In this document: in pieces, positions 2,518 through 53,022 of the stretch
How positions within the stretch are numbered: the first letter of the stretch is position 1
Layout of the letters: every line of letters begins with the position of its first letter
Assembly: GCA_003971905.1 (NCBI GenBank)
Contig: RSEE01000008.1
Span: 930,001 to 994,000, forward strand
From: Moniliella sp. 'wahieum'
Lineage: Eukaryota
Reading direction: 5' to 3'
Length of the DNA: 64,000 nt
Translations under genes and position numbers: made by a program
Notes under the pieces: generated by a model
What the model was told of the DNA's origin: nothing
Seen by the model: only the letters and a program-made list of their open reading frames with translations
Databases searched by the model: none

Positions 2518-2968
2518 TTACTTGAGCACCTTCTTCTTGCGCAGCTGCGATGAGTGGCCGCACTTGCGCTTGCGGCAGTTGGTCGCACGCGGCGGCAGAC
2601 GAGCGTAGCACTTGCGGCAAATTTGCTTCTCGACATTCGTCTTGGACGCAAGCACCTTGAGCGAGGGCTCAATGATACCTCCCAGTAGGCTGAGGAGCCA
2701 TTCGCACGTTAGTTCCCAGTGGCCAGACACGCGACAAGAGGTGGACAACGTACCTCAACGACATGTGCAGCGTAGCGTCCTTCTGGATGCCATAGTCGGC
2801 AAGGGTACGGCCGTCGGCCAGCTGCTTGCCCGCGTAGAGCAGGCGCTGCTCCGAGGCGGGGATGCCCTCACGGGCAAAGTTGAGGGCCTTGACCGACTCG
2901 ACCGTGGCCTCAGGGGCCACAGCGTGAGCCAGGGTGTTGCCCCGGACAGAGTTGACAAAGATTTGCAT
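2518..2968 (-). CDS. RPL40: Ubiquitin-like domain fused to 60S ribosomal protein eL40 (2 coding exons: 2968-2754 and 2689-2518)
   Basis: Exon 1 [13 protein letters not shown]...[31 protein letters not shown]; 64-nt intron GTACGT...CTAAC...CAG; exon 2 [56 protein letters not shown]. Spliced length is 128 aa = 76+52. A probable 5'UTR intron (GTAAGT near 3087 to CAG just before the ATG) is also visible. Confidence 0.95.
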
Positions 2969-4222
2969 CCTACTGCGAATGGTGGAGGGGTCAGCGGAAG
3001 CCGGAAGGGGGGGCGGTGGATGAACACAACAAGGGAGGGAGGGGGAAGGCGCTGGGGGTGGCGCCGCACGCGAACACGGGCACTTACCTTGACTTGCTTG
3101 GTGGTGGACAGGCGGCAGTACCACGTCCGGGCGTCGGGAGGCGAGGCGGGCAGGGGTGCCCACTAGTGCCCTGAGAATTTGCGAGACTGGCCAGGTGCTG
3201 AGGGGGAAGAGCGGTGAGTGGCCTGATGCGGGCATGAGTTATTGCGCCGGCCCAGCCCTAGCCTGCGCTAGCACTGGCGCCGCGGCGGTAGGGTCTGGCT
3301 GGCCGGGCGGACGGCGCAGTTGAAAGTTGCAGGGGATGGGAGGCTGGTTTTGAAATGTGGAGGCAGGGGGGTCGGATGCAGGAACGGATGGGCGATGATC
3401 GATGATAAGCGAGATGGATGATATGGGCACGGGATGGGCGCTGGGCGGCAGAGCAGTGTGCGGTGGAAAGCAAAGCTGAGCACTCGAATGCTTAACCCCG
3501 CTGGGGCAGCCGGGGAGACTGGGGTGACGAGGGTGACCAGGGTGACTACGGGGCAGCATGGAGCAGCAGCCAGCGCTCCTCCGAGGGAGTGGATACCGAG
3601 GACAGAGTGAGTTACCACTGTCATCGACCATGGAGGATCACTTCGATCACTTGTCCTCATTCCTCAGGCCGCTCTGGCAACACCACCGCCTCCTTGACGG
3701 GCTGCGGAGGCCATGGCTGTGGGCAGCGCCATTGGTGTGGTGGTTGCATGGCGCGACGAGCAGAGGAGGACAAGGCAAATGAAGCCAAGCAACAAGGGCC
3801 AGGGGCCTATTGTTGCAGATACACATGGCAGCGCGCAGAAGGCGTACGCAGACAATGCCCGCGACGAGGCTCATCCATCTCATCATCCGTGGGGGAAGGT
3901 GGGCTGATATGCTGCCTGTGGCGCTGGCTGCTGCTCCAGCGTCTACACGGGCAATATGAGCGCAGCTATGGACGGCTATCGACTGTCGGCTACCCCGGAT
4001 GTGAAAGGGCGGGGCGGCACGGGTGGTGTGGGGTTAGGTGGCCGGCATCTGAATCCGGCGGCGGTGGGGCGCACGGCCAGTGCGGGGCAGGTTATTAGGC
4101 TACTGGCGATTGGTCAGCTCTTATAAAGCAGCACTGCTGCTTGCGCCCCGCCGCAGCACCCGCCTTCTCCTCCCATCCCCCTTGCCCCACCCTTGCCACC
4201 CCCGTCTCCACCCCCCATCGCC

Positions 4223-5863
4223 ATGTCCGTCAAAACCTTTTCCCGCGACGAGGTCGCCAAGCACAACACCCCAGGCGACACATGGTCGTGATTGATGCGA
4301 CCGTGTACGATGTGAGCAAGTTTGCTGCCATGCATCCGGGCGGCGAGGCGGTCCTGTACGACCCCGAGGTTGCTGGCGGCGATGCGACCGAGGCGTTTTA
4401 TGGCCTGCACCGCGCCGACATTTTGAACAAGACCATGGCCAAGCGCCTGGTCGTGGGGCAGATTGAAGGGGAGGAGCCCGAGGTACGCACCAAGGCAGTG
4501 GTGCGCCTTCGCCTCCCTTTTGCCGAGCCCACCTGGCTGCACCCAGTGTTCAAGTCGCCGTACTACAAGGACTCGCACCGGCGCTTGCAGCGCGAGTTCC
4601 GCGCGTATGTCGAGGAGCACGTTATTGCCGTTGCGCGCGAGTGTGAGGCCAATGGCAAGCGTCCTCCGCTCGACTTGGTCAAGGATATGGGTGCCAAGCA
4701 GATCAACGCGATGCGCATGGGGCCTGGCAAGGTGCTCAAGGGCCGCAAACTGTTTGCCGATGTCAAGCCCGAGGAATTTGACTATTTCCACGAAATGATC
4801 TTGACCCAGGAACTGTCGCGGTCGGGCGTGCGTGGCTGGATGGATGGCCTCCAGGCGGTATGGTTATTGGCCTCCCGCCCATTATCAACTTTGGCACCCC
4901 CGAGCTGCAGAAAGAGATTATCGAGCCCGTTCTTGCTGGTGAAAAGTTCATCTCGCTTGCTGTCACTGAGGCCTTTGCCGGGTCGGACGTCATGTCCATC
5001 CGTACCACTGCCCAAAACAGAAGGACGGGTCGTACATTGTTAACGGGACCAAGAAGGTACGTTGTGTTGTTGCTAACCAAGCCCCGCCCCTCACCCTCTC
5101 GTGAGGACATGCATGACGCTGACGCTGACATATGGGTTGGGTTTTTTGCAGTGGATCACGAACGGTGTCTTCTCTGATTACTTCACGACGCTGGTTAAGC
5201 TCTTGGACGAAGAAGGCGAGGAGGGAGGGTTTGCAGTGCTGTGTATTCCGCGTGTGGAAGGGGTGGAGACAAAGCAGATCAAGACCCAGTATTCGACCAC
5301 TGGCACAGCCTTTACGTTTGACAATGTGCGCGTGCCATCCAAGTACTTGGTGGGCGAAGAGGGGATGGGGATCATGGTCATCCTCTCCAACTTTAACCAT
5401 GAGCGATGGGTATGTGCTGCGGAACGATCCGTGGCGCCCGCCTGATGCTAGAGGAGTGCATTACGTGGACCACCCAGCGCAAGGCATTTGGCAAGCCGCT
5501 GACGTCGCAGGCGTGGTGCGGCAAAAGCTGGGCCAGATGATGAGAGTGCGAGGCGGGGCAAGCTTGGCTCGAGGCTGTCACGTTCCAGATGAACCAATGA
5601 GCTACAAGGAGCAGGCCAAGTACCTGGCTGGCCACATGGCTTTGCTCAAGAGCTGGTCCACCGAGATCTCGACCAAGACGGCGAACGAGGCGATCAACTT
5701 GTTTGGTGGACGTGGCCTGACCAAGACTGGGCTCGGCGCCCTGGTTTCGGCGGCCCAGATGGGAACCAAGTTTGACGCCATCCTGGGTGGCACGGAAGAC
5801 ATTCTGCGTGACCTCGGTGTCCGGCAGGCACTGCGCTTTATGCCCAAGACGCACAAGATGTGA
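4223..5863 (+). CDS. Cytochrome b5 domain / acyl-CoA dehydrogenase fusion (frameshifted, intron about 5057-5151)
   Basis: N-terminus MSVKTFSRDEVAKHN...VVIDATVYDVSKFAAMHPGG (cytochrome b5 heme motif). ACAD motifs: LAVTEAFAGSD, WITNG, ILSNFNHERW, LFGGRGLT, AILGGTEDILRDLGVRQA. Confidence 0.9.
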
Positions 5864-16357: not shown

Positions 16358-18068
16358 GTCTGCCAGATATGAGTGTCAGAGGCCGTCAGGAGAGGATGAT
16401 ATTGGCCTCCAACAAGGGGTGTAGCGCCGGGTACCGGTGCAAACCGATGGCGCCTCAGGGCTACAACACGCCTCAACACGGCCTTTGGCGGAGCCGCCTG
16501 CGCGCCTGAGCGCCTCAAGCTCGCGCTTGAATCAAAGCCGTAAGGTGTAGCATGTAAAAGGGCATCAGATACATCGGACACTGGAAGACCGAGTTGGGAT
16601 GTTCTCCCTGTTCTCCCTCGCAGCCCCGCGAGCGCAAGCCACATAGAGGCCACATGCTCAGTCTAATGGAAGGATCATCGATCATCAATCACCAATTAAT
16701 CACCAGCCAATGCACTATGCAGCAGACTGACGACATAGCGATCGAATATCATGCATCATGCGTAACATCTTCTTACACATGGGCCAAGCTGGAAGGGTGT
16801 TCGGATGCGGCGCTTTTTCCGAAGTATTCGACTCCAGCTTACTCCAGCTCGCACAAGCTCGCACCCTTCACTCACGCACGCCCTTGCACATCTCAGGCCC
16901 CTGAGGGCCTGAGGCTGACGCTGACGGAGGCGGAGGGATGCAACAGTATAGGTATGGATCGATAGTACATCTCGATACTCGACTCATACCTAGGGCTGAG
17001 CAGCAGTGCGGAGAAGGTGATGGAAGACTTGATGCGTGGCGCATGATGCATGGTGGAAAGGGGTGCCATGGTGCGAAGTCTATGATGTGCATTCGGCCAG
17101 CTCGTCACGCGTATAACGCGTAACGCGTAACGCGTAACCCGCCCACCGCCGCTCAGCGCTCACGCGTGACGCACCACCGCAGCAATCTCCCAGATGTTCG
17201 TGACTCGAACAATCGAATCTTCCAGCGGTGCATCGGGACGCTCACGCGTCACGCGTCAGGGGGCAGTGGGCTGGCACAGGCTGGCACAGGCTGGCGCGAG
17301 AGGCGCAGGGTGGCAGAGGCGGGCGCGAGGCGCAAGGTGGTAATCGATCGAGCCCTCTTGCACCGGGGGGCCCTGGCAACGCAACGAAGTGCGATCACAT
17401 GCAGAGTCTCTCACATGTCTGGTTCGCACAATTCACCAGGTGCTTCTTTTAGCGCTTGTTGCTGAGCAGGATCTGCGGTTCAGCACCCGCACGCCGCCAG
17501 TTTAAGCCTCTTGGCGAACGCGAGTGCTCCCCAGTGCGACCAGGCCACGCAGCGCCCGACTCACCTGCAGTCTTAAGTCGCACCGCGGGGGCAGTGGGAG
17601 AAACCATTCTTCGGGCCAGCACCTGCGCAGTGTGTGTGCAGACAGCCCTCAAGCTAGCACAGCGTGGGGGCCAATAATTGATGGCGCGTTACGCGCTATG
17701 TGTTGGGCGGCTAGGGGCGGGCGGCCGGTGAGGGCGCGCTCACCGGCGCAGCGGCAGTCCCTGGCCGCTGCTGTGTTGGCACGCGCATGGTGCATGATGA
17801 TGATGCATGATGCCGATCTGTACAGACAGTTTGCGCCCGCTATTACGCCGCCCACACTTGCCTTGTGCCGTCCCAGGGCCACAGGGGCCTCAGGCTGAGG
17901 CCCCCCGTCCTCCACGTTTCAGCCTTCCCACCCGCCTCCGGCCCGCCTCGACCCTCTTCAAGCTGGCCTGGCCTTCCGACATCTTCCATCCCTCCCCCCA
18001 CCTCTCCTCCCCCTCCCCCTTCCCCCGTCCCCTTTCTCCAGCTCCGGGCCCACGTTCTCTACCAGGCC

Positions 18069-19543
18069 ATGCTCAACGTTGCTTCCCTCGCCCTTGTCGG
18101 CGGCCTGCTTGCCGGTCAGGCTGCCGCCCACCTTGGTCATGGTGTCCCGGGCCACCTCACCCCTCGCATGAAGGCGGAGGCGGCCAAGCGCGGCATGGAG
18201 CGTCGCCAGACCTCGTACAACGACCAGACGTGGCAGTCTGTTTCCTCTGCTGCGGCAGAGTGCGGGGTTACAACTATGCTCCCACCTCTTCCTTCAGCTC
18301 GCACTTCCCCGAGATGTGGGAGATCGCCTCGATTGTGTCCTCGGACACGGAGGCGCAGAACGTATGGAAGCAGATCCAGTCCTCCGGCGCTATCCCCAAC
18401 ATTGCACCCAAGGGTACCCCCACTTCCTCCGAGCAAGGCACTCACTATGATGAGAATACCGACCCCGACTGCTGGTGGACTGCTACGCTTTGCACCAAGC
18501 CCAAGCACCCCAACCTGCCTGTCGACATCATCGACTGCCCTACCCCGTCCACCTGGGGTCTGACCTTTGATGACGGGCCCAACTGCACCCACAATGCTTT
18601 CTACGACTTCCTTAAATCCAAGAAGCAGACGGCCACCATGTTCTACATTGGCTCCAACGTGCTCAACTGGCCCCTGCAGGCCCAACGCGGTCTGACGGAT
18701 GGCCACCAGCTCGCCGCCCACACCTGGTCGCACCGTTACACCACTGCCCTCAGCAACGAGCAGGTCTTCGCTGAGCTCTACTACACAGTCAAGGTTATCA
18801 AATGGACCACGGGTGTCACCGTGACCTCGTGGCGCCCGCCTTACGGTGATGTTGATGACCGTGTCCGCGCCATCGCCAACGCGCTTGGCCTCGACACCAT
18901 CATCTGGACCGACGACACGGACGACTGGAACGTGGTCCCGTACGTGACTTGCCCCCTTTGCCTCTTAGCCTCTGTGATTGCCTGTTACTGATTCCTTTTC
19001 TTTAGTGGTGGCACGGCTCCTACCGCTTCGATCCAGGCGAACTACAACAGCATCATTTCCAAGGGCAAGGATCCCGCCGCCACGGGTGGTGTCGTTGTTC
19101 TCACCCACGAGATCAATGCCCAGACGATGCACATGATGATGAACGAGTACCCCACCATTGCTTCGACTTTCAAACACATTGTGCCCGTGCACGTGTGCCA
19201 GAACAAGACCCAGCCGTACCGTGAGGGCTCGTATGTGTACCCCAACTTTGAGCAGTACATTGCTGGCACCATCTTGCCCTCGGGTGTGCCCGACCCTACC
19301 GAAATCACCGCCTCCGCCGTCTCCTCGATCCAAGTCGGTGCCATCTCCTCGTCGGCCCAGGCTACACTCAGCATCTCTTCCTCTGCAGCCCCTTCTTCGG
19401 CCGCTGGCTCTTCTTCGGCCGTTGCCCAGGCGTCGCAAGCGTCGGCAAAGTCAGACAAGGCCAGCGGTGCCTCCGCTGGCGTGGCCGCTGCTGGCTCGGT
19501 GGCTCTGGCAGCCGTGGGCGGCGCGGTGGCCTTGTTCGTTTAA
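18069..19543 (+). CDS. Chitin deacetylase (CE4/NodB), secreted, probably GPI-anchored (intron about 18940-19005)
   Basis: Signal peptide MLNVASLALVGGLLAGQAAA; CE4 motifs TFDDGP, HTWSH, WRPPYGDVDDRVR, VVLTHE; Ser/Ala-rich stalk and hydrophobic C-terminal tail. Confidence 0.92.
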
Positions 19544-28857: not shown

Positions 28858-30432
28858 CAAGCTTTAAGCTTTAGGCTGCACGCTGCAAGCGCCACACGCT
28901 GATCTCCATCTTTTTCCTATACTGTGCTAACTATATAGGTACTACTTCAGCTTCAACTTGAAGCTTGAAGTAGTTTCAAGCTGAAGGAGTACCTGTTGGT
29001 GCCAGCCCAGTATTACTGCTTGGCACAATTCCATCCCACTATCCCACCTGTGGTCCACTATTCGCAGCTTCAAGCCTTCAAAACCTTCAAACTTTCAGCC
29101 GCGGTCCAAGTCTCCCATTCCCCACACGCCACGGCTGTCCGCCGTTGTCCGCTATTGTCTGGTCTCCCGTGGCCGTGTCCCATTCAACAGCAGTCCTGGG
29201 TCTCAGGATGGTCAATGGTATCTCTTGGGCCTGATCGGCTGTTGTCCCCACTATCTGCATCAACTTTTGCCGACTCTCTGGCAACGGCAACAAACGCATC
29301 TCAGGCCTCACCCCCACACATCGACCGCCATACTTGTATCATTGTGATCGATGAGACAGGTAGAATTGAGACTTGCCGATGAGGCACAGGCAGGTGTGAT
29401 TATGATGCGAACTATGATGATGTGTGCTTTGGTTGTGAGGAATACAGTAGGCACGCATAAAGAGAGTAGTACAATGCCCCCTAAAGCGCGGCTGTTCTGT
29501 TTCCGCCGACACAAAGGAAAGACCTCATAAAACGCCCTCTTCAAACACAAAGAGCAAATATGTCAAAACGTCTCAGTGCTGGAAGGACGAGACACCTCTC
29601 TCTGTTAATAGACTTGCCTCTGTGCTTTTTTCACCGATGGCCGTGTTGAGTTTGAACCCTTTCATTGGGGATCCCATAAAGGGAACAAGCCGTGGATAGT
29701 ATGCGCTTTCTGTTTTCGGGGAGCGAATACATAGGCGATCTGGTGCTGAAGTGGTTTCTTTAACGAAAAAGGGTACTGATTGAGCTCAGAAAGAAGTCCC
29801 TGTGTTTTGTTGTGTGTGGTTATCGAATTGTTTTGCTGCTGCCCCACCTCTTTCCCGTCGTAGCATCATCGTATTTTGCCCCGTATACTTTGGGCTGACT
29901 TTTGACGCCTTGAACTATATGCCTTGTGTTGTAGGACGGCGCAGGGGAGTTGCTCGGCGCCATGGAGCAAGCAGGTGCGTTTGGGAGGCCACCAGACGAG
30001 ACGATCGGGGGGAGAGACGGGCAGGAAGGAAGTGCGTGTGTGGTGTGGATGAGGTGGATGAGGGGCGGTTGCGCAGTGCGGCGTGTGGGATGGGTGACAG
30101 CGCTGATGGGATGCTGTAGAGGATGCATGCTGGCTGCTAGGGTTGGTGTGCGCTGTGCTGCAAGGTGGCCTCAGCGGCTGAGGCGCCGAGCAGTTCGCTG
30201 GAGTCTGGGCACTCCAGGCCGGTCGGCTCAAGGCTCGAGGGCAGCTGGAAGCAAGCCTAACGCCTGCGCCGACCGCATGGCTGCATGCCCAGCAGTCGGT
30301 CCGAACTCCGTCTTGAGTACATCCACCATCACCACCACCACCACCTCCTCCTCCACCACCACCTTCACCACCTACCTCCACCCCCCCCCCAACCGCCGGC
30401 CTCCCCCCCCCTCGCCTCGCTCCGCCGCCAGC

Positions 30433-33400
30433 ATGGCCGACGCCGCCATGGCTACCCGCCAGCGCGTCACCTATGTTCTCCCCGCTCCCCCGAGCTCGGC
30501 GGCTGGCGCAGCTCCCTCGGCCCCCACCCACCCGCTCCCGCCCACCACCCACACCTTTGCCGTCCCCCCCCTCCTCCACCCGCGACGCCGCTCGCCTCGC
30601 CCGCCGCGGCCCTCTTCTCATCCCTGTCCCCCACCCCTCCCACGACGCCCTCGCCGACGGCGACCACTCCGATGCCGAGTCAGACGATACCGCCGGCCGG
30701 TCTGACCCCGTATCTGCCACGGCTCGTCCCCGCCCATCCGCCCATCCCTCTTCCACCCCCCACCCACGGCACATGCTCCCTGTCACATCGCTTGCCCTCG
30801 ACCTCACCACCTGCGTCGAGAGCGCCGATGAGCCCCTTTCCGAGCCTTCGCCCGACCCGCGTCCCGACCAGGCAGACGACTTTCTCCCCCCTTCTCTTGG
30901 CGGTGGTGGTGCATCATCGCGCATGCGCACACCCCATCGTCCTCGCGGCCTCTTGTACACGGCTGGGCGCGATGCCCTGACCGCGTCGTGGCAACTCGAC
31001 CTCCCTCTAGCCTGGACTGCGGACGCCTATCGGGACCCCGCTCAACCCAATTCTCGTCCTTGGCGAGTGAAACAACCCTACTGGACTCTCCACCCTCCTG
31101 ACTCGCTCAGTTCGGGACGTGCCTTGGAGTCCGACCCCTTGTTGCGTCGCCCCTTATTCCGACAAGGGATTCAAGCCCACTCGGAGTGGATCAACGATCT
31201 GCTCCTCGTCAACGGCAACCAGACTGTCATCTCTGCCTCGTCTGACAGGCTCATCAAGGCGTGGAATCCACACGACTCGGCATCTCGCTCTACCTCCTTT
31301 ACCCTCGGTAGCCATGACGACTATGTCAAGTCTCTTGCCGCGCCAGCCTGGCAACTTGGCGCTGGCCAGACTCACACTATCGTCTCGGGCGGACTGGATC
31401 GGACGGTCAAGGTGTGGGACATGAACGCCAAGCCTGCCAAGAAAACGTCATTGTCCAACGCCACTTCGAGTTCTGGGCTTGGCGCTGATGACACATCGGC
31501 TCTCCAGCCCGTTCTCACGCTGACGCAAGAGGAAGATGAACTTCCGTCCTCAGTCTATAGTCTCAGTGTCAATGGGCCAGGGACCCTGATCGGAGTGGGG
31601 TGCTCGGCGAATGAGGTGTCCGTGTACGATACGCGGAGCCGAGTGCGGGTGGCCAAGCTGGTGGGCCACACGGGTTATGTCCGTTCGTTGCTCATGTCGG
31701 CAGACGGGCGCCATCTCCTGTCGGCCTCGTCAGACAGCACAGTGCGGCTGTGGTCCATCGCAGAACAGCGTGCGCTCCACACGTTTGAACACCATTCGGA
31801 CTCTGTCTGGGCTCTGTACTCGAACGACCCGTACGAAAAGGACACACTCACCTCCTTTTATTCGGCTGATCGGGTGGGCGACCTTTGCAAGGTCGATTGG
31901 TCAGATGAGCCCGACATTGTGAGCGGCGAATGTGTTCTGCTGGCTCGCAATCGTCCTTCGATGTTCAACCGACGCGGCAGCCACGTGCCCATTCCGATCG
32001 GCGAAAGTACCACCACACCGGCCCACCCACACCACGGAGCCAGTCACCAAGGTATCCATCGCATCGTTGCCGCTGACGATGCGTTTGTTTTCACTGCCTC
32101 AGACACTTCCTCCTCGGTGCTAGTGTGGCCCGATGTACCCAAGCGCAAGGATCGGCTAGCCAAGTACCCCGCCATTGCCGCACGCGACATTTCTGGTTCC
32201 GCTGGGGGCGAAGCCAGCTGGGCGAGCCAGGCCAAGGAAGCGATTCAGTCGAGCCAAACTAACCCAACCGACATCTCGTCTGCTGTCGAGATGGCTGGTG
32301 TGCCCGCTTCTAGTCTTGTTTCTCTGGGCGATGACCAGAGCTTGTTTGACGATCGCCCGACCGACGATGGGTCCAGTCTACTCGACCGGCCTCCCACTGC
32401 GGCGGGGCAACGTGCGCCTGGGCGGATGGCGCTGCTGCGTGAGGTGGCGGATGTGGCGGTACCGCTGTTCCGGCAACCCTGTGCTCGTGTGTCGGGTGGG
32501 GTGGGCTTGATCCGCAGTTCGATGCTCAATGACCGTCGGCATGTTCTCACCATGGACACGCGTGGCTCTGTTGGCATCTGGGACATTTTACTAGGCGTGT
32601 GTCTTGGGTTTTTCGAACGGAGAGCGCTTACCCAGCTGGCGCTCGACGAGGAGGCTCTGACGGGCACAACACCTATCGGCTCGGTTCAAGCCCAATCAGC
32701 CACGGACATGACCCAGGAGGCGATCACAAATTTGCTCACCCATTCGCCTGCGGACCTTCTCGAGCTGATTCGCGAACGAATCGAAGGGTCAGATGCGGCG
32801 CCGTTTTGGTGCACGACCGACGTGCGTGCTGGCTTGCTCTCGGTTCACCTACAGAGCAACAAATGCTTTGATGCCGAGATGTACATGGACGATGTCGAGT
32901 TTGCCAACAAAGCCGGTTACAAGGAGGACACCCGAAGTATGCCCCTCTCCCCTCCCCGCCTCTCTTTGCATTTGTTAGTTTGCTTCCCTCTCTTGCCGTA
33001 CTGACCACCACTTTCTAGTCAACATGGGCCGCTGGGTCCTTCAGAATTTGTTTAGGGGGTTCATTGAGCAGGAGATTTCCGCTCGCAGTGGTTCCTATCG
33101 TGACGGTCACTTACAACCGCCGACAGTGACGCAAAAGGACCTGCTGGCAGCTGAGGAGCCTACAGCCTTTTTCCGTGCGGGAGAAGTTCCAAAAGCACTC
33201 GCTGCTCCCCTGGGGGCTAGCTTGGCAATCCCACCTTCTGATAAAACCGTCGTCCTTCCCCCGGGTTCGGATCGAGGGCAGCCGAGTGCTTGGTCACCAT
33301 ACAGCCCTTCCGTCCCATTGGCGGTAGAGGTACAAATGAAGACCCTCCAAGATGCCCGTGCGGCTTTGCAACTCGCTCAATTGTCTGCGCCGCATATGGA

Positions 33401-34662
33401 GGAGGAACACAGTGTGGATGCGGGCGATGCCAACGCCCATGGTTCGTCGGCCAAGTCTGGCGGGGGCTTTATGTCGCGTTTCAAACGGAAACACAAAGAC
33501 AAGGACAAGAAGCCCGCTGGCGATGCTGCTTCAGCGGCGCAACGTGCGGCCAGAAGGAATGAACCATTGCATGTCCGGCAAATCCGTGACATTGTTTCCC
33601 GAGTTGCCTTGCTCTCCTGCCCTACCAGCTGGCTATGGCGTGAATGATCTTTCCCCGTCCCAAGCTCACCCTCTACTGGACTTGCCTCCTCTTCCTTTCC
33701 CGTCAGGCGTGATGGTCTTGTTTGGTGCCATTTCCCCTCAGGCGGGGCAGGCGCTTCCTGCTTACCGCGAAACGACGGGACGAATGGGGCAGGATGTTCC
33801 GCTTCTTGAACTGGTGGCCTCGTCTTGGCTTCTGGCCAATTTGCTCACCCCGCCACCAGCTGCCGAGCCTCCCACTTCTCTTTCTCCGCCCCCAGCGACC
33901 ACCCCAGCCGCGATCAAGGACCCGGCCGCGTACGAGGCAGCTGTGCAAGATTCTGCCGCCCTCTTTCGCCGCGAGGTGGTCAAGATCAGCTTTATCCTCA
34001 CGCCTTGGCTTCCGTCTGGAGCCGACGAGTCATCAGAGACACCCGCCCAACGATCCAGCCTGTTCCTCCCCGAACTTCCTGCGAGCACGACCCGCTTGAC
34101 GGCGACGCAGATGCTGCGCATGAAGAAGGTGTCGGCGTATGTGCTGGATAAGCTGGCATCGCGGCAGCAAGAGGCCGTACATGAAGTGCCACAAAAAGGC
34201 ATGAACCATGCGCAAGCTGTCGCCCAGCTGGCCGACGTACGCTACTGGTCCACGTTCAAGCTGCCCGCCGAGGATGAGATTGTGATCTTGTGCAACGACA
34301 CGGTTGTTCCCCCCGATATGACGCTGGCCCAAACCAGACGCTTCCTCTTCCGTCAGCCAGGCGACCTCAAACTCGAGTACCGCCGGGCGAAACCGGGCGA
34401 AACCCTTGCCTTCTCCCGCGGTGCTGCGACTTCGGCGCCACAGCCCCTGCTCTCGCATCTGTTCCCGCACGGGGTCTCGGCCCCCCACAGCTCTTCTTCC
34501 GTCTCGGACGCTGGCTACATGGGTCGTCCCTCCATCGCGGATTCGTACGCGCCTGCTGCCGATTCGGACGAGGGAGAGAGCGAGACGGACACAGAGGCCG
34601 AGTTGGACAGCTACCGTGGCCCCACCACCTCGGCCCCGTTGCATCGATTGGGGTACCATTAA
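30433..34662 (+). CDS. WD40-repeat deubiquitinase activator, WDR48/UAF1 (Bun107)-like (intron about 32937-33018, frameshifts)
   Basis: N-terminal RQRVTYVLP; LYTAGRD; AHSEWINDL; ISASSDRLIKAW; KLVGHTGYVRSLL..LLSASSDSTVRLWS; LNDRRHVLT. C-terminal RLTATQMLRMKKV and ILCNDTVVPPDMTLAQTRRFLFRQPGDLKLEYR are DUF3337-like. Confidence 0.88.
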
Positions 34663-34973: not shown

Positions 34974-35966
34974 CTAAGGCAGACGGATCGAGTCGATGCG
35001 AAGGCGCGTGTACTGTTCTTGGTGTGTTGAGTGACGCTTCCACTTGCGCGGCATGTGCCGCACCTTGATCCATACGGGCGAATGAGTGTGTTCGACGACG
35101 GTTGCCTCGATTTGCACGATCGGTTGGGCGGCTTCTCCCACCGCGCCAGCGAGGGCAGCCGAAGAGTACGGCTCCGATGGCGTCGCGCGGTTCCCAATCC
35201 GCTCGGCTTCGACGGGGGTGAGTCCAATGAGCGCAGACAGCGTAGCACCCTTGTTGGCAATTCCATCCACCGACGCAGCGTTGGCCTCCCAACTGTTTTC
35301 TTGCTGCAGGCCTCGCTGCACGGCATATTGCATCAGCGACTGGGTCCCGGGGGGCCCGGGCAGTTCACGGAACGAGCCAGGCACACGCAACCGCAGTGCC
35401 TCGAGTTCGGTATTGCGCAGCTCATTGGGCAACAGCACATTGTCCGCCGTCTTGCGCAGCTGCTTGGCCTGCAGGCGATGGTGCGTGCGACGCCAGAGCG
35501 ACTCTTGGGCACGCAGGACATAGTCCCGCGTACCAATTTCGTGGATGCGGTCCAAGTGCAGCACATCCCCAACGTGCACATCCGTCATGCCCGGCACGGT
35601 CACCACGTCGCCCGGCGCGACGAGGTAGGTCTTGCCCAAAAAGGAGACAACCGCATAGAGGTGGGTACTTTGGGATCGCAACAGCTCCACCGCCGTTTGG
35701 CGCTCCACCGCCTCCAGAGGCGTCTTCTTGTCCACCTTATCCGCGCGGAAGGACTTGGAAGGCACCTTGTATCCGGACCGGCTCATGATGTAGTGGCCGC
35801 GCTCCAGCGCGCTCGGCGTCACCTTGACTGACTCGGCATCCGTCTCGATTTCGTGGAGGATGAGGGGGCTGCGGCGCGGCGGCTGGGACTGTGCCTGGTG
35901 CACAGCGCAGGAGGTGGAGAGGGCGCGCACAGGCACCGCCCGCGCGGCCGCCGCCGCCCGGAGCAT
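34974..35966 (-). CDS. Mitochondrial large-subunit ribosomal protein bL21m
   Basis: Presequence MLRAAAAARAVPVRALSTS; L21 motifs LYAVVSFLGKTYLVAPGDVV, IHEIGTRDYVL, IEATVVEHTHSP, HQEQYTRLRI. Confidence 0.82.
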   Translation of the reverse strand: MLRAAAAARAVPVRALSTSCAVHQAQSQPPRRSPLILHEIETDAESVKVTPSALERGHYIMSRSGYKVPSKSFRADKVDKKTPLEAVERQTAVELLRSQSTHLYAVVSFLGKTYLVAPGDVVTVPGMTDVHVGDVLHLDRIHEIGTRDYVLRAQESLWRRTHHRLQAKQLRKTADNVLLPNELRNTELEALRLRVPGSFRELPGPPGTQSLMQYAVQRGLQQENSWEANAASVDGIANKGATLSALIGLTPVEAERIGNRATPSEPYSSAALAGAVGEAAQPIVQIEATVVEHTHSPVWIKVRHMPRKWKRHSTHQEQYTRLRIDSIRLP

Positions 35967-36394
35967 CGCGCCAGAGCCGCTGCGGACGAGGAGGACCATC
36001 GGGAGAGCAGTGGGCAGCGGGAAGAAGCGTGTGTGGGTGCAGCGCTTGCAGGCCCAGCGCAGCAAAGCCAACCTTCCGACGGCCCCCAGCGGGCGTTGCA
36101 CACCGATCGGCCGCGCGCTAGGGTTGGCGCTGCGCCCGACGCGAATATTTCTAAGCCTCAGCTGCGGCCGCTGCGCCCGCCGCGCTCACGTAAGCAAGCG
36201 GCCGGGCGCAGGCGGCCACGCGCGCAGCATCACCCACCACGCGGAGGGCTCATGCGTCAGCCGGCTGCCAGCACTCCGCTGCGCCGGCTGCGCACAGCGC
36301 CTGTGTCCGCGCCGCGCACCCCAGCAGTGTCGCTGGCGGGCAGCCGCTCTCTTCTTCTCTCCTCCCAGCCCTGCTGTGCCCCGCCTTGCCAAGC

Positions 36395-42300: not shown

Positions 42301-45300
42301 TGACCTGTGGGACTGAAAGAACGCCCATTGGGCCCCAACGAGAAGCCTGCGATGATTCAGCGCGACGTCTGATCCAAGCTGGGTACAACGACTCGGACGG
42401 ACTGGAGGATTGAGCAAGGAAGACCTTTCCTACTTCATCAAATTTATTTACCGCCCTGACATTGTCCCCGGTTCGATTCGGAAAGCTTTGGGAACGACAA
42501 GGCACGCTATGCTCATCTCGACTTGCACAGTCGCAATCTGGAGATGGTCCCCATCTTTCTCTACCGACATGCCGACTGGATTGTATCTCTGGACTTGTCG
42601 GGCAATCCAATGTCGGATGTTCCGGCGGACTTTGTCCAGATGTGCACGCACCTCCGCCGCCTTCGCCTCGCCAACTTGACACTCAAACGGATCCCCCCGG
42701 GGTGCGTGTCTCGTCGTCGCTCACCCATCTCGACCTGAGCAGCAACGCATCCTCCAGCTCGAACCCTCATTGGAAGGGTGTCGGGCCCTGCAGTCCATCA
42801 ACGTGCTCAACAACCGTTTGTATCAATGCCCCCCTGGGTACCAAGAGTAGACACGCTGCGCTCGCTCAACTGTCCAATAATCGCTTTGACACCTTCCCAC
42901 GCATCGTCTCGGCTCTGTCCAATCTGGCCGAGCTGGATCTTTCGTTCAACAGCATTCGTCAGCTTCCGCCCGAAATTGGCCAATTGCAAAGCCTAGAGCA
43001 GTTGATTCTGGTGGGCAACTCGATCGAGGACCTGCCGGCTGAGATGGCCCAGCTGAGTACTCTCCACACCATTGATTTGTGCCGCAACTTGGTTCACGAT
43101 GTCAGCATTCTGTTTCACATGCCCCGGATTAATGTGGTCAGGTGCGGCCACAATGCGATTCGTCACTTTGAGGCGACGCTGGGGGAGCGGATGCGGATCC
43201 TCGAAGTGGGCCAGAACCCGATGACCAAAGTTTCTCTTGCCGCCCCCTCACGTCTGACTTGACCAGCCTCAACTCAGCTCGACCAACATGGCCCGTCTGG
43301 ACGAGGGTCTGTTCCGTCTTTTGCCCTCGCTCACCGAACTCGTATTGGATCGCAATTTGTTACCCTTCCTGATTCGCTGGGCGAGCTGGCTAACTTGGCC
43401 GTATTTAGCTGCAACAACAACAATTTGGCCACTCTGCCCGACTCGATCGGAAACTTGCGCAACTTGTCCAGGCTCAACATTCAGAACAACAACCTCAAAC
43501 GCCTTCCTGCCTCGATCTGGAATTGTGCTTCTCTCAAGCACTTGAATGTCACCTCCAATTTACTCGAAGCATTCCCATTACCACCTTGGTCCCTGGTCCG
43601 TCTACTGCAACCCCAGCAACCAGCTCCATCTCGTCTAACCCTGTGATGCATCAACAGGCACTGTCCTGGCCCCGTTCGAGTCGGATCGGAAAGGTTCCGT
43701 TGCTTCGCTTCAGCCCCCTGGACCGACTGGATGGCCCACTCGGTTGAGGAGGCCCGTCCGTTAGCCAAGAGCTTACGCCAATTCCGAGCTGGCGACAACA
43801 TTTGGCCGACGATGTGTTTACCATTCTCCGTCTCTTTAAGCATCTGGAAGTGCTCAATCTGAGCTTTAACGAGATTTACGAGGTGCCGCCCCACACCTTG
43901 TCCCAGCACAAGCAACTTCAAGAGCTGTACCTGTCTGGAAACAGTCTTGCTAGTGTTCCCGAGGACTTGTCAGAGTTGCACAACCTCAAGGTGCTCTTCC
44001 TCAATGGCAACAAGCTCCAGACCCTGCCGGCCGAGCTGGGGCAGATGAGTGCGCTGGTTGAGTTGGACGTGGGCAACAACAACCTCAAGTACAACATTGC
44101 CAACTGGGCGTACGATTGGAACTGGAACAACAACCCCCAGCTGCGCTATTTGAACCTGAGCGGCAACCCCCGCTTTGAGATCAAAGCCAAGATCTTACGA
44201 TCAACGGTCGCCGCAAGAACATTTCTGACTTCAACGATCTGCGCTCGTTGCGCGTCTAGGCCTGATGGACGTTACGTCGCCGCGAAATCGACGCCGGACG
44301 AGTTGATCAACCGTCGTGTGCGCACCTCCCTCTCCAAGGTGAACCACATGTCCTATGGCATTGCCGATGCGTTGGGCGACCGAGAGGAGATGAGCACGGT
44401 GGATGTGGTGGTACCCATGTTCCGCAAGGTCGAGACAGAGGCACTGCTGGCCATGTTTGACGCGCGCGGACAAGTATCGTATGGGGGAAGTAAGATCTCT
44501 CGCTTCATGGCCGAGGCAATTGCGATCCAGTTTGAGAAGCAGTTGGCGCTCCTGGGTCCCGGAGGCAATGGTGCGACGGTGGAAGATTGTCTTCGTCGGA
44601 CCTTTTTGCAACTCAACAGCATCTTTACCGACTTCTCTCCGAGGAACCCGAACGCCGCACCTCCGATCTTGCTTCCGTCGACGCTCTGAAGACCATCTTC
44701 CCACTAAGCAGTTGGATGGGGCGTCCACCCCGGATTGGGCTGAGGGTTGCTCCGCCATCGTGGCGTACGTTGCGGACCATATGTTGTACATTGCCAATGC
44801 AGGCGATGCGCTGGCGGTTCTGTCGCACAATGGCGGTCAAGCCGAGTTGATCGCGACCAACCATTCGCCCTTTGACCGAAACGAGACCCAGCGAATCCGT
44901 GCGGCCGAGGGGTGGGTGTCTCTGGACGGCTGTGTGAACGGCCAGTTGGAGGTGTCGCGCGGGTTTGGGTACTACAATCTCTTCCCAGTGGTCAACGCGG
45001 CCCCAGCGGTGCACACGGTGCATCTGTCCGATTCGCACGAGTTTGTGATTATTGCGAATCGGTCGTTATGGGAGGTTTTGTCCTACCAGACGGCCGTCGA
45101 CATTGCGCGCATGGAACGGGACGAACCAATGATCGCGGCCCAGCGACTTCGGGACCTCGCCATCTCGTACGGCGGAGATGAGAGCATCATGGTCATGGTC
45201 CTCTCGGTCGCCGACTTGTTTGGCAACCGACGCGGCTTTGATCCGCTCGCTGCCGACGTGATGCGACGGCAACGCTTTGGTGCTGGCGCTAGCTTGCCCG

Positions 45301-46612
45301 CCGATCGTACCCTCGCCCGCCTCGAACGCGAAATTTCTCCCCCGATTGGTCAGATTGCACTGGTATTCACCGACATTAAGAACTCGACCCACCTGTGGGA
45401 AACCAACTCGGGCATGCACACAGCCATGCGGATCCACAACACGCTCCTGCGACGACAGTTACGTACCGTGGCGGGCTTTGAGGCCAAGGTGGAAGGCGAT
45501 GGCATGATGGTACGTTTCCCAGTCTGGGTTGCTGGGGAGGAGATGATCTGACAAAACATTCTGTTGGCGGCGCTTTCAGGCTAGTTTTTCGTCGGTTGCG
45601 GCCGCATTGTTGTGGTGTTTCAATGTCCAGATTGGTTTGCTGCATGAGGACTGGCCGCAAGAGTTGCTGGAAAGTGAGATGGCAAAAATCTGTGACGAGC
45701 ACGGCAACGTGATCTACCGTGGACTCCGTCTCCGCATGGGCATTCATTGGGGCAGTCCCGTGTGTGAGCCGGATCCGATCACGGGACGGATGGACTACTT
45801 TGGTCCGATGGTCAACCGCGCCTCGCGAATCGCCAGTGCGGCCGATGGAGGCCAGATCTTGTCAGCAACGACGTGGTGCAAGCGTGAGCGAAACGATTGG
45901 TGCGTTTGATCGCTCCAACCAGATCCGCAGCATGGATGGGGAGGACGAGTATCCCATGTCCAACGTCAACGTCAATCGCAACGTGATCCTGTTGCGTCGG
46001 ATGGGCTTTGAGATCACAGAGATTGGATTCCGGCGACTCAAGGGGCTGGAAACGCCCGAGCTGCTGTACCTCGCCCTCCCGCAGCCGCTTATTGGCCGGT
46101 TGAACAGCGATCACACCCTGCCCATCGAGGCCCATCCGGCTCATGTGTTTGAGCCAACGGTGCAACTACTCAACGCTCGCCAGGTGCACGAGATTGGTCT
46201 GCTGTGCTTGCGCGTCGAAGCTCTTAGTAATGGCCATCCCTTCCCGGGCATCATGGCCATGCACGGAGGACAAGCCCGGATGCGGTACATTGAGGATGCC
46301 GTGACGGCCAAGCCCGAGATTCTCGTTTGTATGATTCATGACGATGCATCCGACAAAGAGTTGGCCTTGGTCCTGATCCAGCTCACCGTCCGTTTGGCCA
46401 ACGCGGTGGCCAAGATGACGCTCGACATGGTGGTACGCAACATGCCCCGTATCACCTCCTCCCCCGACGCTTCGGGCTGGAATGCGGACATCCCCGTGCC
46501 CATCTCCCAGGGCGAGAACGCTGGACAGCCACAGACGGATGCGCTGGGCTTGTCCCTCGGCGAATTGCAGCACCTCGTACGTCACCTACAAAGCCTGACC
46601 CAACTACTGTAA
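39370..46612 (+). CDS. CYR1: Fungal adenylate cyclase (RA domain, LRRs, PP2C-like domain, class III catalytic domain); start uncertain, many frameshifts, introns near 42268 and 45510
   Basis: RA-like VRIYRPDGTFATL; many LxxLxLxxN repeats; YNIANWAYDWNWN; PP2C-like LYIANAGDALAVLS and LEVSRGFG; catalytic IALVFTDIKNST, KVEGDG, GLRLRMGIHWG, MDYFGPMVNRASRI. Confidence 0.95.
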
Positions 46613-51767: not shown

Positions 51768-53022
51768 ATGTCCTTCCGTGCCATCCCCGAAGACGCTTTC
51801 AGCGCCGAGCTGGGCCAGACCACGACTGAGGTCTCGTCCAACGCGCTTGGCGGCCGCATCCTTGCCGCCAGCGACGAGTGGTTTGCCCCGGCCACGGACC
51901 TGATCAAGCCTGGGCCGGCAGTGTCGCTCAAGGGCCAATTTGGACCCAAAGGCGCTCTTTATGATGGCTGGGAGACCCGTCGTCACAACCCGGCAGGTGT
52001 GGATTATGCCATTGTCCGACTCGGTCCCAAGGCGGGTGCGACCGTGTGCGGATTTGACATTGACACCTCCAACTTCAACGGCAACGAGGCTCCTGCCGCC
52101 GCCGTCTTTGCCTTGGCTCAGCCCCCTGAGGAGGAAGCAGCCGGTAAACAGATCGCTGCAGACGACCTTAGGGTGTGTCGTTTTCCCCGTGCTAGGTTGT
52201 GCTTGTGTGCTGACCGTTTCCCCTCCGATTCAGTGGCAGCAATTGCTCCCCGAGGTGCCTTGTGGTCCCTCGCGCCGGCACATATTTGCCCTCACCGCTC
52301 CTTCGTCTACTGTCTTTACCCATGTGCGGCTCGACATGATCCCCGATGGCGGAATTGCTCGCTTCCGTGTGTATGGTCAGATTGCCCCGCCTCCGCCCGG
52401 GCTTGGGTACGAGGAACAAGTTGATGGCCCCGAGGCGGCGCTAGGCGTGCTGGACCTAGCGCATGTGATGAATGGTGGCCGCGTGGTGTACACGTCCGAC
52501 CAGCACTTTGGCGTGGGCGCGAACGTGCTCCTGCCGGGTCGGGGTAAGGACATGGGAGATGGATGGGAGACCAAACGTTCCCGCACTCCGGGACACAAGG
52601 ACTTTATTGTGATCGCGTTGGGTGAAGCAGCGTTGCTCTCCTACACGGAGATTGATACGCTGCATTTCCTAGGCAATTTCCCGCAAACCGTCGAGCTGTT
52701 TGGCACCTCTCTTCCCGAAGGCGCCGCCTGGCCCGTCGCGCCCGGCGCAGGTGCAGGAGAGCAAGCGGCCGGCATTCAGTGGACTCAGCTAGCGCCGCGC
52801 ACACCCATGGGCCCGGGCAAGCGGCACTTTGTCCCCTTGGCCCCCGCCGGGCCTATCACCCACGTCAAAGTGGTTATGCATCCGGATGGTGGGATCAAGC
52901 GGGTACGGCTGGTGGGCAGGCGGGCCAAGCCGTTGGCCGGCTACAAGGGCCCGATCCCCTCTGTGCCTCTGCCAATCAGCCCCGACGCGGAGCCGGCCAC
53001 GTCGGTACGGTCCGGGCTTTGA
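51768..53022 (+). CDS. DAL2: Allantoicase (intron about 52173-52233)
   Basis: Two allantoicase repeats: SDEWFAPA..YDGWETRRHN..DIDTSNFNGN..PDGGIARFRVYG and SDQHFG..MGDGWETKRSR..IDTLHFLGNFP..PDGGIKRVR. Confidence 0.95.

Follow-up and report, generated by a model that had tools for sequence, protein, structure and literature searches.

Ubiquitin is among the most conserved proteins, with the fungi serving as a textbook example, and the reason for its fusion to the ribosomal proteins eL40 and eS31 is debated: the fusions may be a source of ubiquitin, provide a cis-acting chaperone or couple the supply of ribosomes to that of ubiquitin. In canonical ubiquitin-eL40 (Ub-eL40) precursors (S. cerevisiae UBI1/UBI2, human UBA52 and Cryptococcus neoformans UBI1) of 128 residues, a ubiquitin identical or nearly identical to the other ubiquitins of the organism is joined through GG|IIEPS to an eL40 having zinc-ribbon cysteines. 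Here we describe a gene of this architecture, in a 64,000-nucleotide stretch of DNA from Moniliella sp. 'wahieum' (contig RSEE01000008.1, positions 930,001 to 994,000; hereafter, the window), in which the ubiquitin-like (Ubl) moiety differs strongly from canonical ubiquitin.

The published systems closest to this gene are summarized here. Concerted evolution generally keeps the ubiquitins encoded at different loci identical, although there are exceptions (PMC8122580). Divergent L40-fused ubiquitin had previously been known only from Giardia, but has also arisen twice in Plasmodium, with at least 15% of the sites changed, and highly divergent ubiquitins are found on S27a fusions in various protists (Dalhuisen et al. 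2023, PMC10457151, dealing with Giardia lamblia and the Plasmodium vivax and P. ovale lineages and citing Catic & Ploegh 2005). In these L40 fusions the ubiquitin has escaped conservation with its fold predicted to be kept, and the authors ask whether it is now a chaperone only or still a modifier, and suggest that it may have kept the task of chaperoning the ribosomal protein. In yeast, eL40 deprived of its ubiquitin moiety, for which Smt3 can partly substitute, is made poorly, and ubiquitin may be a cis-chaperone (PMC6721733). The second comparison is FUBI-eS30 (FAU) of holozoans, in which a diverged Ubl ending in GG precedes a small ribosomal protein, is cleaved from it by USP36 and is not used as ubiquitin (PMC8354635).

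The Ubl-eL40 gene occupies positions 2968..2518 of the minus strand and consists of two exons, which upon joining give a 387-nt coding sequence specifying 128 residues plus the stop codon. Exon 1 (2968..2754, minus strand, 215 nt) extends from the ATG at 2968-2966 to the AG of codon 72 and encodes residues 1-71, whereas exon 2 (2689..2518, minus strand, 172 nt) closes with the TAA stop codon read from the sequence at 2520..2518. The 64-nt intron (2753..2690, minus strand) interrupts codon 72 in phase 2 and has a GTACGT 5' site, a CTAAC branch-like motif and a CAG 3' site. Exon 2 begins with the tail of the Ubl domain (2689..2677, minus strand), in which the first base, C, completes codon 72 (AG|C, serine) and is followed by L73, L74, G75 and G76. 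The GG is joined directly to the 52-residue eL40 part (IIEPS...VLK; 2676..2521, minus strand), a PF01020 domain that preserves the normal Ile-Ile-Glu-Pro N-terminus and all four cysteines of the CxxC...CxxxxC pattern; the presumed cleavage site follows G76. In Pfam searches exon 1 matched PF00240 (ubiquitin) with an E value of 3.1e-21 over profile positions 1-68 of 72 and exon 2 matched PF01020 (Ribosomal_L40e) with an E value of 9.9e-29, both far above the chance level. The gene therefore has the N-terminal ubiquitin domain, the four-cysteine eL40 after GG and the gene structure of the Ub-eL40 precursors (UBI1/RPL40/UBA52 type). No second ubiquitin or eL40 was found within the 64-kb window, the next tblastn match having an E value of 0.83 or worse.

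What the gene lacks is the canonical or near-canonical ubiquitin of that class. The Ubl domain is identical to human ubiquitin at 43 of 76 positions (39 of 70 in the HMMER alignment, counted by hand, plus four of the last six) and to the canonical basidiomycete ubiquitin that forms part of protein P0255 at 42 of 76, leaving 34 changes (45%). In contrast, 46 of the 52 eL40 residues are identical to those of P0255. Four of the seven ubiquitin lysines are lost (K6N, K11N, K29L and K33R) with K27, K48 and K63 kept, all three residues of the L8/I44/V70 hydrophobic patch are altered (L8V, I44L and V70S) and the tail LRLRGG has become LSLLGG through R72S and R74L. Neither the tail arginines nor the patch and complete lysine set of ubiquitin proper are thus present, although R42, I36, H68, L71, L73 and G75-G76 are kept. 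The composition has also shifted, there being 11 alanines instead of 3 and 14 charged residues (acidic plus basic) instead of 22. The patch is needed by most ubiquitin receptors, and we take R72 to be the main determinant of recognition by the ubiquitin-activating enzyme (E1) Uba1, with R74 playing a smaller part. A preliminary description of this locus, made from the sequence alone, had reported a strongly diverged ubiquitin on a well conserved eL40. Its 76-residue domain proved identical, letter for letter, to the joined translation, its count of about 43/76 against human ubiquitin was reproduced, every lysine, patch and tail change it listed is present in the translated domain, and codon 72 is indeed AG|C split by the intron with the tail LSLLGG. 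It had also considered the frame, length and splice sites to be intact, which agrees with the start codon, GG junction, four zinc cysteines and stop codon found here.

An AlphaFold2 model of the Ubl domain, built from a 52-sequence alignment, had a mean pLDDT of 95.8 and the ubiquitin order of strands and helix. In a Foldseek search, 49 of the 50 matches listed were ubiquitin chains, with TM scores of 0.92-0.98, root mean square deviations of 0.6-1.5 Å and 48-56% identity; the TM score to ubiquitin was 0.96. As the input alignment consisted mostly of ubiquitins, part of the likeness comes from the input, and thus the model is compatible with the ubiquitin fold rather than independent proof of it. 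A search of the ESM Atlas returned generic ubiquitin clusters only. NEDD8 has a residue other than arginine at position 72 and has Tyr45. The window domain has both traits and NEDD8/Rub1 lies at about the same distance from ubiquitin, but NEDD8 lacks an eL40 fusion, whereas the window domain is fused to eL40 and has the tail LSLLGG. We rejected identity with NEDD8 because every match listed, the best 60 by PDB sequence and 50 by fold, was ubiquitin or a variant of it, a judgment made without a NEDD8 sequence alignment.

Relatives of the Ubl domain were sought with exon 1 in a word-indexed search limited to proteins of 44-142 residues, which excluded polyubiquitins and gave 98 candidates, 95 of them at E≤0.001. 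Three open reading frames (ORFs) from other Logan assemblies (P0003, P0004 and P0005) were 87-89% identical to exon 1 and the next best match was 62% identical. All three end in ...HMSLR followed by a stop codon or YV, as expected of AG|GTA... read through, and because these ends fit an AG|GT read-through they share the intron site of the window gene. The four sequences are identical to canonical ubiquitin at 38-39 of 71 positions and to one another at 58-63 of 71, and 28 of the 71 sites depart from canonical ubiquitin in every one of them; window and P0003 differ by 9 replacements in 71. Since the same 28 derived sites are common to all, most of the divergence predates the common ancestor of the four. 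Canonical sites were invariant among the four in 35 of 39 cases vs 19 of 32 for derived sites (Fisher p 0.0045). The 17 variable columns include sites 8 and 44 of the patch and site 11, and Q2, F4, T12, I36, R42, G47-K48-Q49, H68 and L71 are kept in all four together with K27 and K63. The window and the contig of a relative described below both retain G75-G76, and that contig encodes the serine of the tail by a different codon. The derived residues common to the three relatives and the serine retained through another codon argue that the new sequence is under selection. We conclude from these sequences that the divergence is old, constrained and common to a small unannotated clade near Ustilaginomycotina, and that selection has apparently maintained the new Ubl sequence since the ancestor of the four, with a relaxed subset of surface sites.

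The placement of this clade comes from a WDR48-like ORF of the window, whose best named matches were Tilletiaria anomala (38%), Sporisorium (39%) and Tilletia (45-48% over part of the length), ahead of those from Pucciniomycotina and Agaricomycotina. With a window G+C content of about 60%, these matches indicate a G+C-rich basidiomycete that would lie near or within Ustilaginomycotina. The best relatives of the same ORF were 75% and 69% identical, which suggests that they are not very close to the window organism, and they may be organisms other than the sources of P0003-P0005. No annotated close relative of the lineage was found in the collections searched. An exhaustive HMMER search with exon 1 gave 24,710 matches at E≤0.001, the best 150 of which were all polyubiquitin-like with 4-20 matched stretches, and a metagenome scan with the clade alignment gave 483 pattern matches of which three (L001-L003) were confirmed, at 36-37% only, and no orthologous DNA. 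Neither the diverged domain nor its eL40 variant having KTNVEK was present among annotated proteins of at least 99 residues (the best 120 of 1117 eL40 matches, 12 of which were inspected in full). Among those 12, P0250, P0252, P0255 and P0266 have a whole ubiquitin that is canonical or nearly so, seven are shortened or partial with canonical ubiquitin or ...LRGG tails and P0249 is moderately diverged. The last, a 130-residue protein from a JGI metagenome, has a ubiquitin 52% identical to the window domain, the tail LRLLGG and a canonical eL40; it suggests further unreported L40-fused ubiquitins that are drifting, including loss of R74.

The intron also bears on the origin of the gene. Read-through ORFs of canonical Ub-eL40 of the basidiomycete type, P0252 (...LVLRYV...CSLRGG) and P0271, P0274 and P0278 (...SLRGG), are what would be expected of an intron that splits codon 72 behind its second base, in agreement with the site and phase of the window intron (read from the ORFs rather than from DNA). 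Because this intron position is shared with canonical basidiomycete genes, the window gene descends from an ordinary Ub-eL40 locus or from a duplicate made at the DNA level; a retro-copy is ruled out by the presence of the intron at that position. A single base change in codon 72 (CGY or AGR to AGY) would account for R72S. Among the matches listed, the eL40 part is closest (86-92%) to the eL40s of basidiomycetes, namely Cryptococcus depauperatus, Moesziomyces, Sporisorium, Parajaminaea, Malassezia and Mycena.

Four public sequencing runs (X1-X4) were aligned to the locus at 80% likeness. A 196-nt contig of X1 aligned to 2648-2689 plus 2754-2907 with four other letters and omitted exactly 2690..2753; the junction has 42 and 154 letters on its two sides and the skipped segment ends in CT..AC on the plus strand, which is GT..AG on the strand of the gene. 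A second X1 contig had 108 letters on the eL40 part with 13 other letters, and hand decoding of its loose end at 2685 gave D-S-T-L-H-M-S-L-S-L followed by L74-G-G-I-I-E. This contig is a spliced form from a relative. Its Ser72 codon is AGT rather than the AGC of the window, within the same S72-L73-L74-G-G tail. Run X2 gave a 182-nt contig on 2782-2963 with five other letters, and the X1 and X2 contigs on exon 1 (2754-2907 and 2782-2963) are 97-98% identical to it. X3 contained only canonical-ubiquitin pieces, over 2778-2838, and nothing from X4 aligned. The near-identical or related contigs gave 12 listed nucleotide differences, of which 10 are synonymous and the other two cause E34V and E92D; all eight in the eL40 part fall at third codon positions, seven being synonymous and the eighth giving E92D. 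Nine runs matched words of the locus at shares of 0.05-0.08 (8% or less), none was labeled as RNA, and they have no bearing on expression either way. A candidate 5'-untranslated region intron (3087..2973, minus strand, 115 nt, GTAAGT...CTGAC...CAG), predicted from sequence alone, ends 4 nt before the ATG, a common arrangement in fungal ribosomal-protein genes; no contig spans it. The splice junction that the preliminary description had wished to see confirmed is joined exactly at 2754|2689 in the X1 contig, subject to the library kind of that run being unrecorded, and the worry that reads might show canonical codons is met by independent X1 and X2 contigs having the same diverged codons.

Compared with the systems in print, the window gene is of the same gene type as the Giardia and Plasmodium fusions (PMC10457151). 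The Plasmodium proteins mostly keep all seven lysines, and the 8/44/70 patch bar one conservative change, whereas the fungal gene has 45% of its positions changed, four lysines lost, V70S and both tail arginines gone. We found no diverged L40-fused ubiquitin from a fungus in full-text searches of the literature, to which the supplement of PMC10457151, where the statement on Giardia is qualified, did not belong. Fusions of this kind are known, though rare, and the window gene would be a new fungal and unusually extreme case common to a small clade. The partner of FUBI is eS30 of the 40S subunit, whereas PF01020 identifies the partner here as eL40 of the 60S subunit, and the two fusions are of independent origin, so the window gene stands outside the FUBI-eS30 class. 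By analogy, it most likely works as does FUBI-eS30, a likeness in way of working rather than membership. The preliminary description had taken FUBI as its precedent; the comparison is apt, but the L40-fused divergent ubiquitins of Giardia and Plasmodium are a closer one (PMC10457151).

The best explanation of these data is probably that the locus is a functional Ubl-eL40 precursor gene encoding a cleavable leader of ubiquitin fold that aids eL40 and that is itself likely outside the ubiquitin pool. The ubiquitin moiety would have escaped both constraint and sequence homogenization in the ancestor of the clade and then settled into a new conserved sequence. The leader would help in cis while eL40, a small and basic protein that binds zinc, is synthesized and folded, and a deubiquitinase-type protease would cut after Gly75-Gly76, freeing eL40 with its Ile-Ile-Glu-Pro start for the 60S subunit; conservation of GG and the normal eL40 N-terminus point to such cleavage. 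Once freed, the 76-residue domain has probably ceased to contribute to the ubiquitin pool, because its tail has Ser72 and Leu74 in place of the arginines, its patch is broken by Ser70 and four of the seven lysines are gone. We infer a chaperone role, with poor or absent activation by the ubiquitin E1. The leader is best read as keeping what a cis-acting cleavable fold would need, namely the core, GG and the I36/L71/L73 and Q2/F4/T12 surfaces, and as being without what ubiquitin proper needs, if R72, R74 and the patch have the roles that we take them to have. The most economical reading, by analogy with FUBI, would be a leader that can be cleaved off and has ceased to be ubiquitin proper. The earlier suggestion of FUBI-like decay stands in part: the gene is real, intact and spliced, the flagged residues are changed and eL40 is conserved. 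The decay does not stand, as three relatives carry the same derived residues and the S72-L73-L74-G-G tail is kept via a different serine codon.

A broader proposal, which we advance tentatively, is that throughout an early-branching Ustilaginomycotina-like clade the only eL40 gene has a non-ubiquitin leader, an independent fungal counterpart of FUBI on a large-subunit rather than a small-subunit protein. Free ubiquitin would then come from other loci only, the leader would be kept purely for eL40 and the protease would accept the Ser72/Leu74 tail. In a bolder form, the freed domain would be a private modifier having its own E1 specificity.

Several observations weigh against the cleavable-leader explanation. 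The copy-number search covered the 64-kb window, and both the status of the gene as sole eL40 source and the state of polyubiquitin and Ub-eS31 lie beyond it. Run X1 contains a canonical ...TLHLVLRLRGG tail joined to a canonical eL40 start (...K-YNCE; loose ends at 2679 and 2641), and its canonical-junction contigs have depths of 26.5 and 20.8 vs 3.2 for the diverged spliced contig. These could come from a canonical paralogue of the same organism or from another organism in the sample. As X1 carries two diverged forms, 98% and 88% like the window, it is probably a mixed sample rather than one organism with several paralogues. An RNA origin of the spliced contig is simplest but, given that the library kind of X1 is unrecorded, an intronless DNA copy is possible. 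Some normally conserved positions of the eL40 part are replaced (KYNC[DE]K to KTNVEK and RPKKK to RKKKV), which would fit a deep lineage or a specialized paralogue alike. E34V falls in the Ubl part and the difference counts are too few for dN/dS. Finally, the retained K27, K48, K63, R42 and GG would equally suit a modifier.

The strongest rival built on these points is a diverged paralogue beside a canonical Ub-eL40 gene elsewhere in the genome, arising from a DNA-level duplication that kept the intron. The other copy would have gone on supplying ubiquitin and standard eL40, leaving this one free to change and possibly to give a specialized eL40 or a minor expression form. In its favor are the greater depth of the canonical X1 junction contigs and the KTNVEK and RKKKV replacements, and extra Ub-like/eL40-like genes do occur in grasses (P0047, P0062, P0095 and others). 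However, depths are not comparable across organisms in a sample as plausibly mixed as X1 and, although the search for a second copy reached only the window, no second ubiquitin or eL40 was there. The eL40 part is also strongly constrained, as judged by the eight of eight listed differences at third codon positions, and its 46/52 identity looks unremarkable in a lineage in which the WDR48-like protein and its annotated relatives share only 37-48% of their residues. Moreover, divergence of a sole copy has a precedent in Plasmodium (PMC10457151). On balance we consider the paralogue rather unlikely, though a serious alternative to the leader explanation.

If the domain were instead a new conjugatable modifier with its own tail specificity (S72 and L74) and a co-evolved or different E1, the eL40 fusion would be only its production route. 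The residues kept in the four clade members (K27, K48, K63, R42, I36, H68 and the Q2/F4/T12 surface), the retained GG and the conservation of derived residues, which implies that the surface is under selection as well as the core, are all compatible with this. However, a cis-chaperone role by itself explains a stable fold and GG, and position 72, which we take to be the main site by which E1 enzymes discriminate ubiquitin from NEDD8, is a serine that fits neither. The variation within the clade at patch sites 8 and 44 and at site 11 is unlike any established modifier. We therefore regard a modifier as improbable. Still less credible is a decaying or dead copy, either a neutral pseudogene or an assembly artefact. 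The 43-45% of ubiquitin positions changed and the increase in alanine (11 vs 3) are as expected of drift in a G+C-rich genome, but the frame, start codon, GG junction, four zinc cysteines and stop codon are intact, and three other assemblies keep the frame, the intron site and the derived residues. The two spliced contigs and the 10 of 12 synonymous differences also argue against it, and read or assembly error is excluded by the diverged codons of the X1 and X2 contigs at 97-98% identity.

A lineage in which the leader of eL40 has about 45% of its residues changed and a tail devoid of arginine, and yet is selected, separates in nature the role of a fold before eL40 from that of ubiquitin supply. 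The sequence should be useful in complementation of yeast ubi1/ubi2 strains and in studies of the tail specificity of deubiquitinases and of E1 discrimination at position 72. It extends the class of divergent L40-fused ubiquitins from parasites (Giardia and Plasmodium) to free-living or insect-associated fungi. It is thus relevant to a question asked in PMC10457151, namely whether ubiquitin has escaped in this way more often than has been appreciated.

Other diverged fusions were encountered in the searches. The grass Ub-like/eL40-like genes resemble the window gene in having a diverged ubiquitin before an eL40-like sequence, but carry insertions, place additional residues between GG and eL40 and often have a truncated eL40, none of which is seen in the window. 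Members from grasses and metagenomes (P0047, P0062, P0084, P0088 and P0091-P0095) have acidic insertions in the ubiquitin part and seem to be a family of diverged Ub-eL40 paralogues in their own right. A 98-residue JGI metagenome protein (P0090) has a diverged Ubl ending in GG followed by a short Arg/Lys-rich peptide annotated as PF05162 (ribosomal L41), a rare Ubl-eL41 fusion.

Elsewhere in the window, the WDR48-like ORF used above (30317-33004, plus strand) and a second long ORF (33340-34662, plus strand) together give a WD40 propeller followed by DUF3337 (PF11816), an architecture of the deubiquitinase-activating WDR48/UAF1/Duf1 type. The best named matches were from Ustilaginomycotina (37-48%) and the JGI names of related matches include 'WD repeat-containing protein 48'; the distance to the Ubl-eL40 gene is 27 kb, and we do not propose that the two are connected. 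An ORF transcribed divergently from the Ubl-eL40 gene, about 1 kb upstream of it, has a cytochrome b5-like haem-binding domain (PF00173, E 2e-12; 4099-5043, plus strand). Further ORFs encode a polysaccharide deacetylase domain (17804-18991, plus strand), a bacterial-type L21 domain that is probably of the mitochondrial ribosome (34974-36185, minus strand), a PP2C phosphatase domain (44394-45551, plus strand) and an allantoicase domain (51904-53022, plus strand). These four are ordinary fungal housekeeping genes, several of them clearly split by introns.

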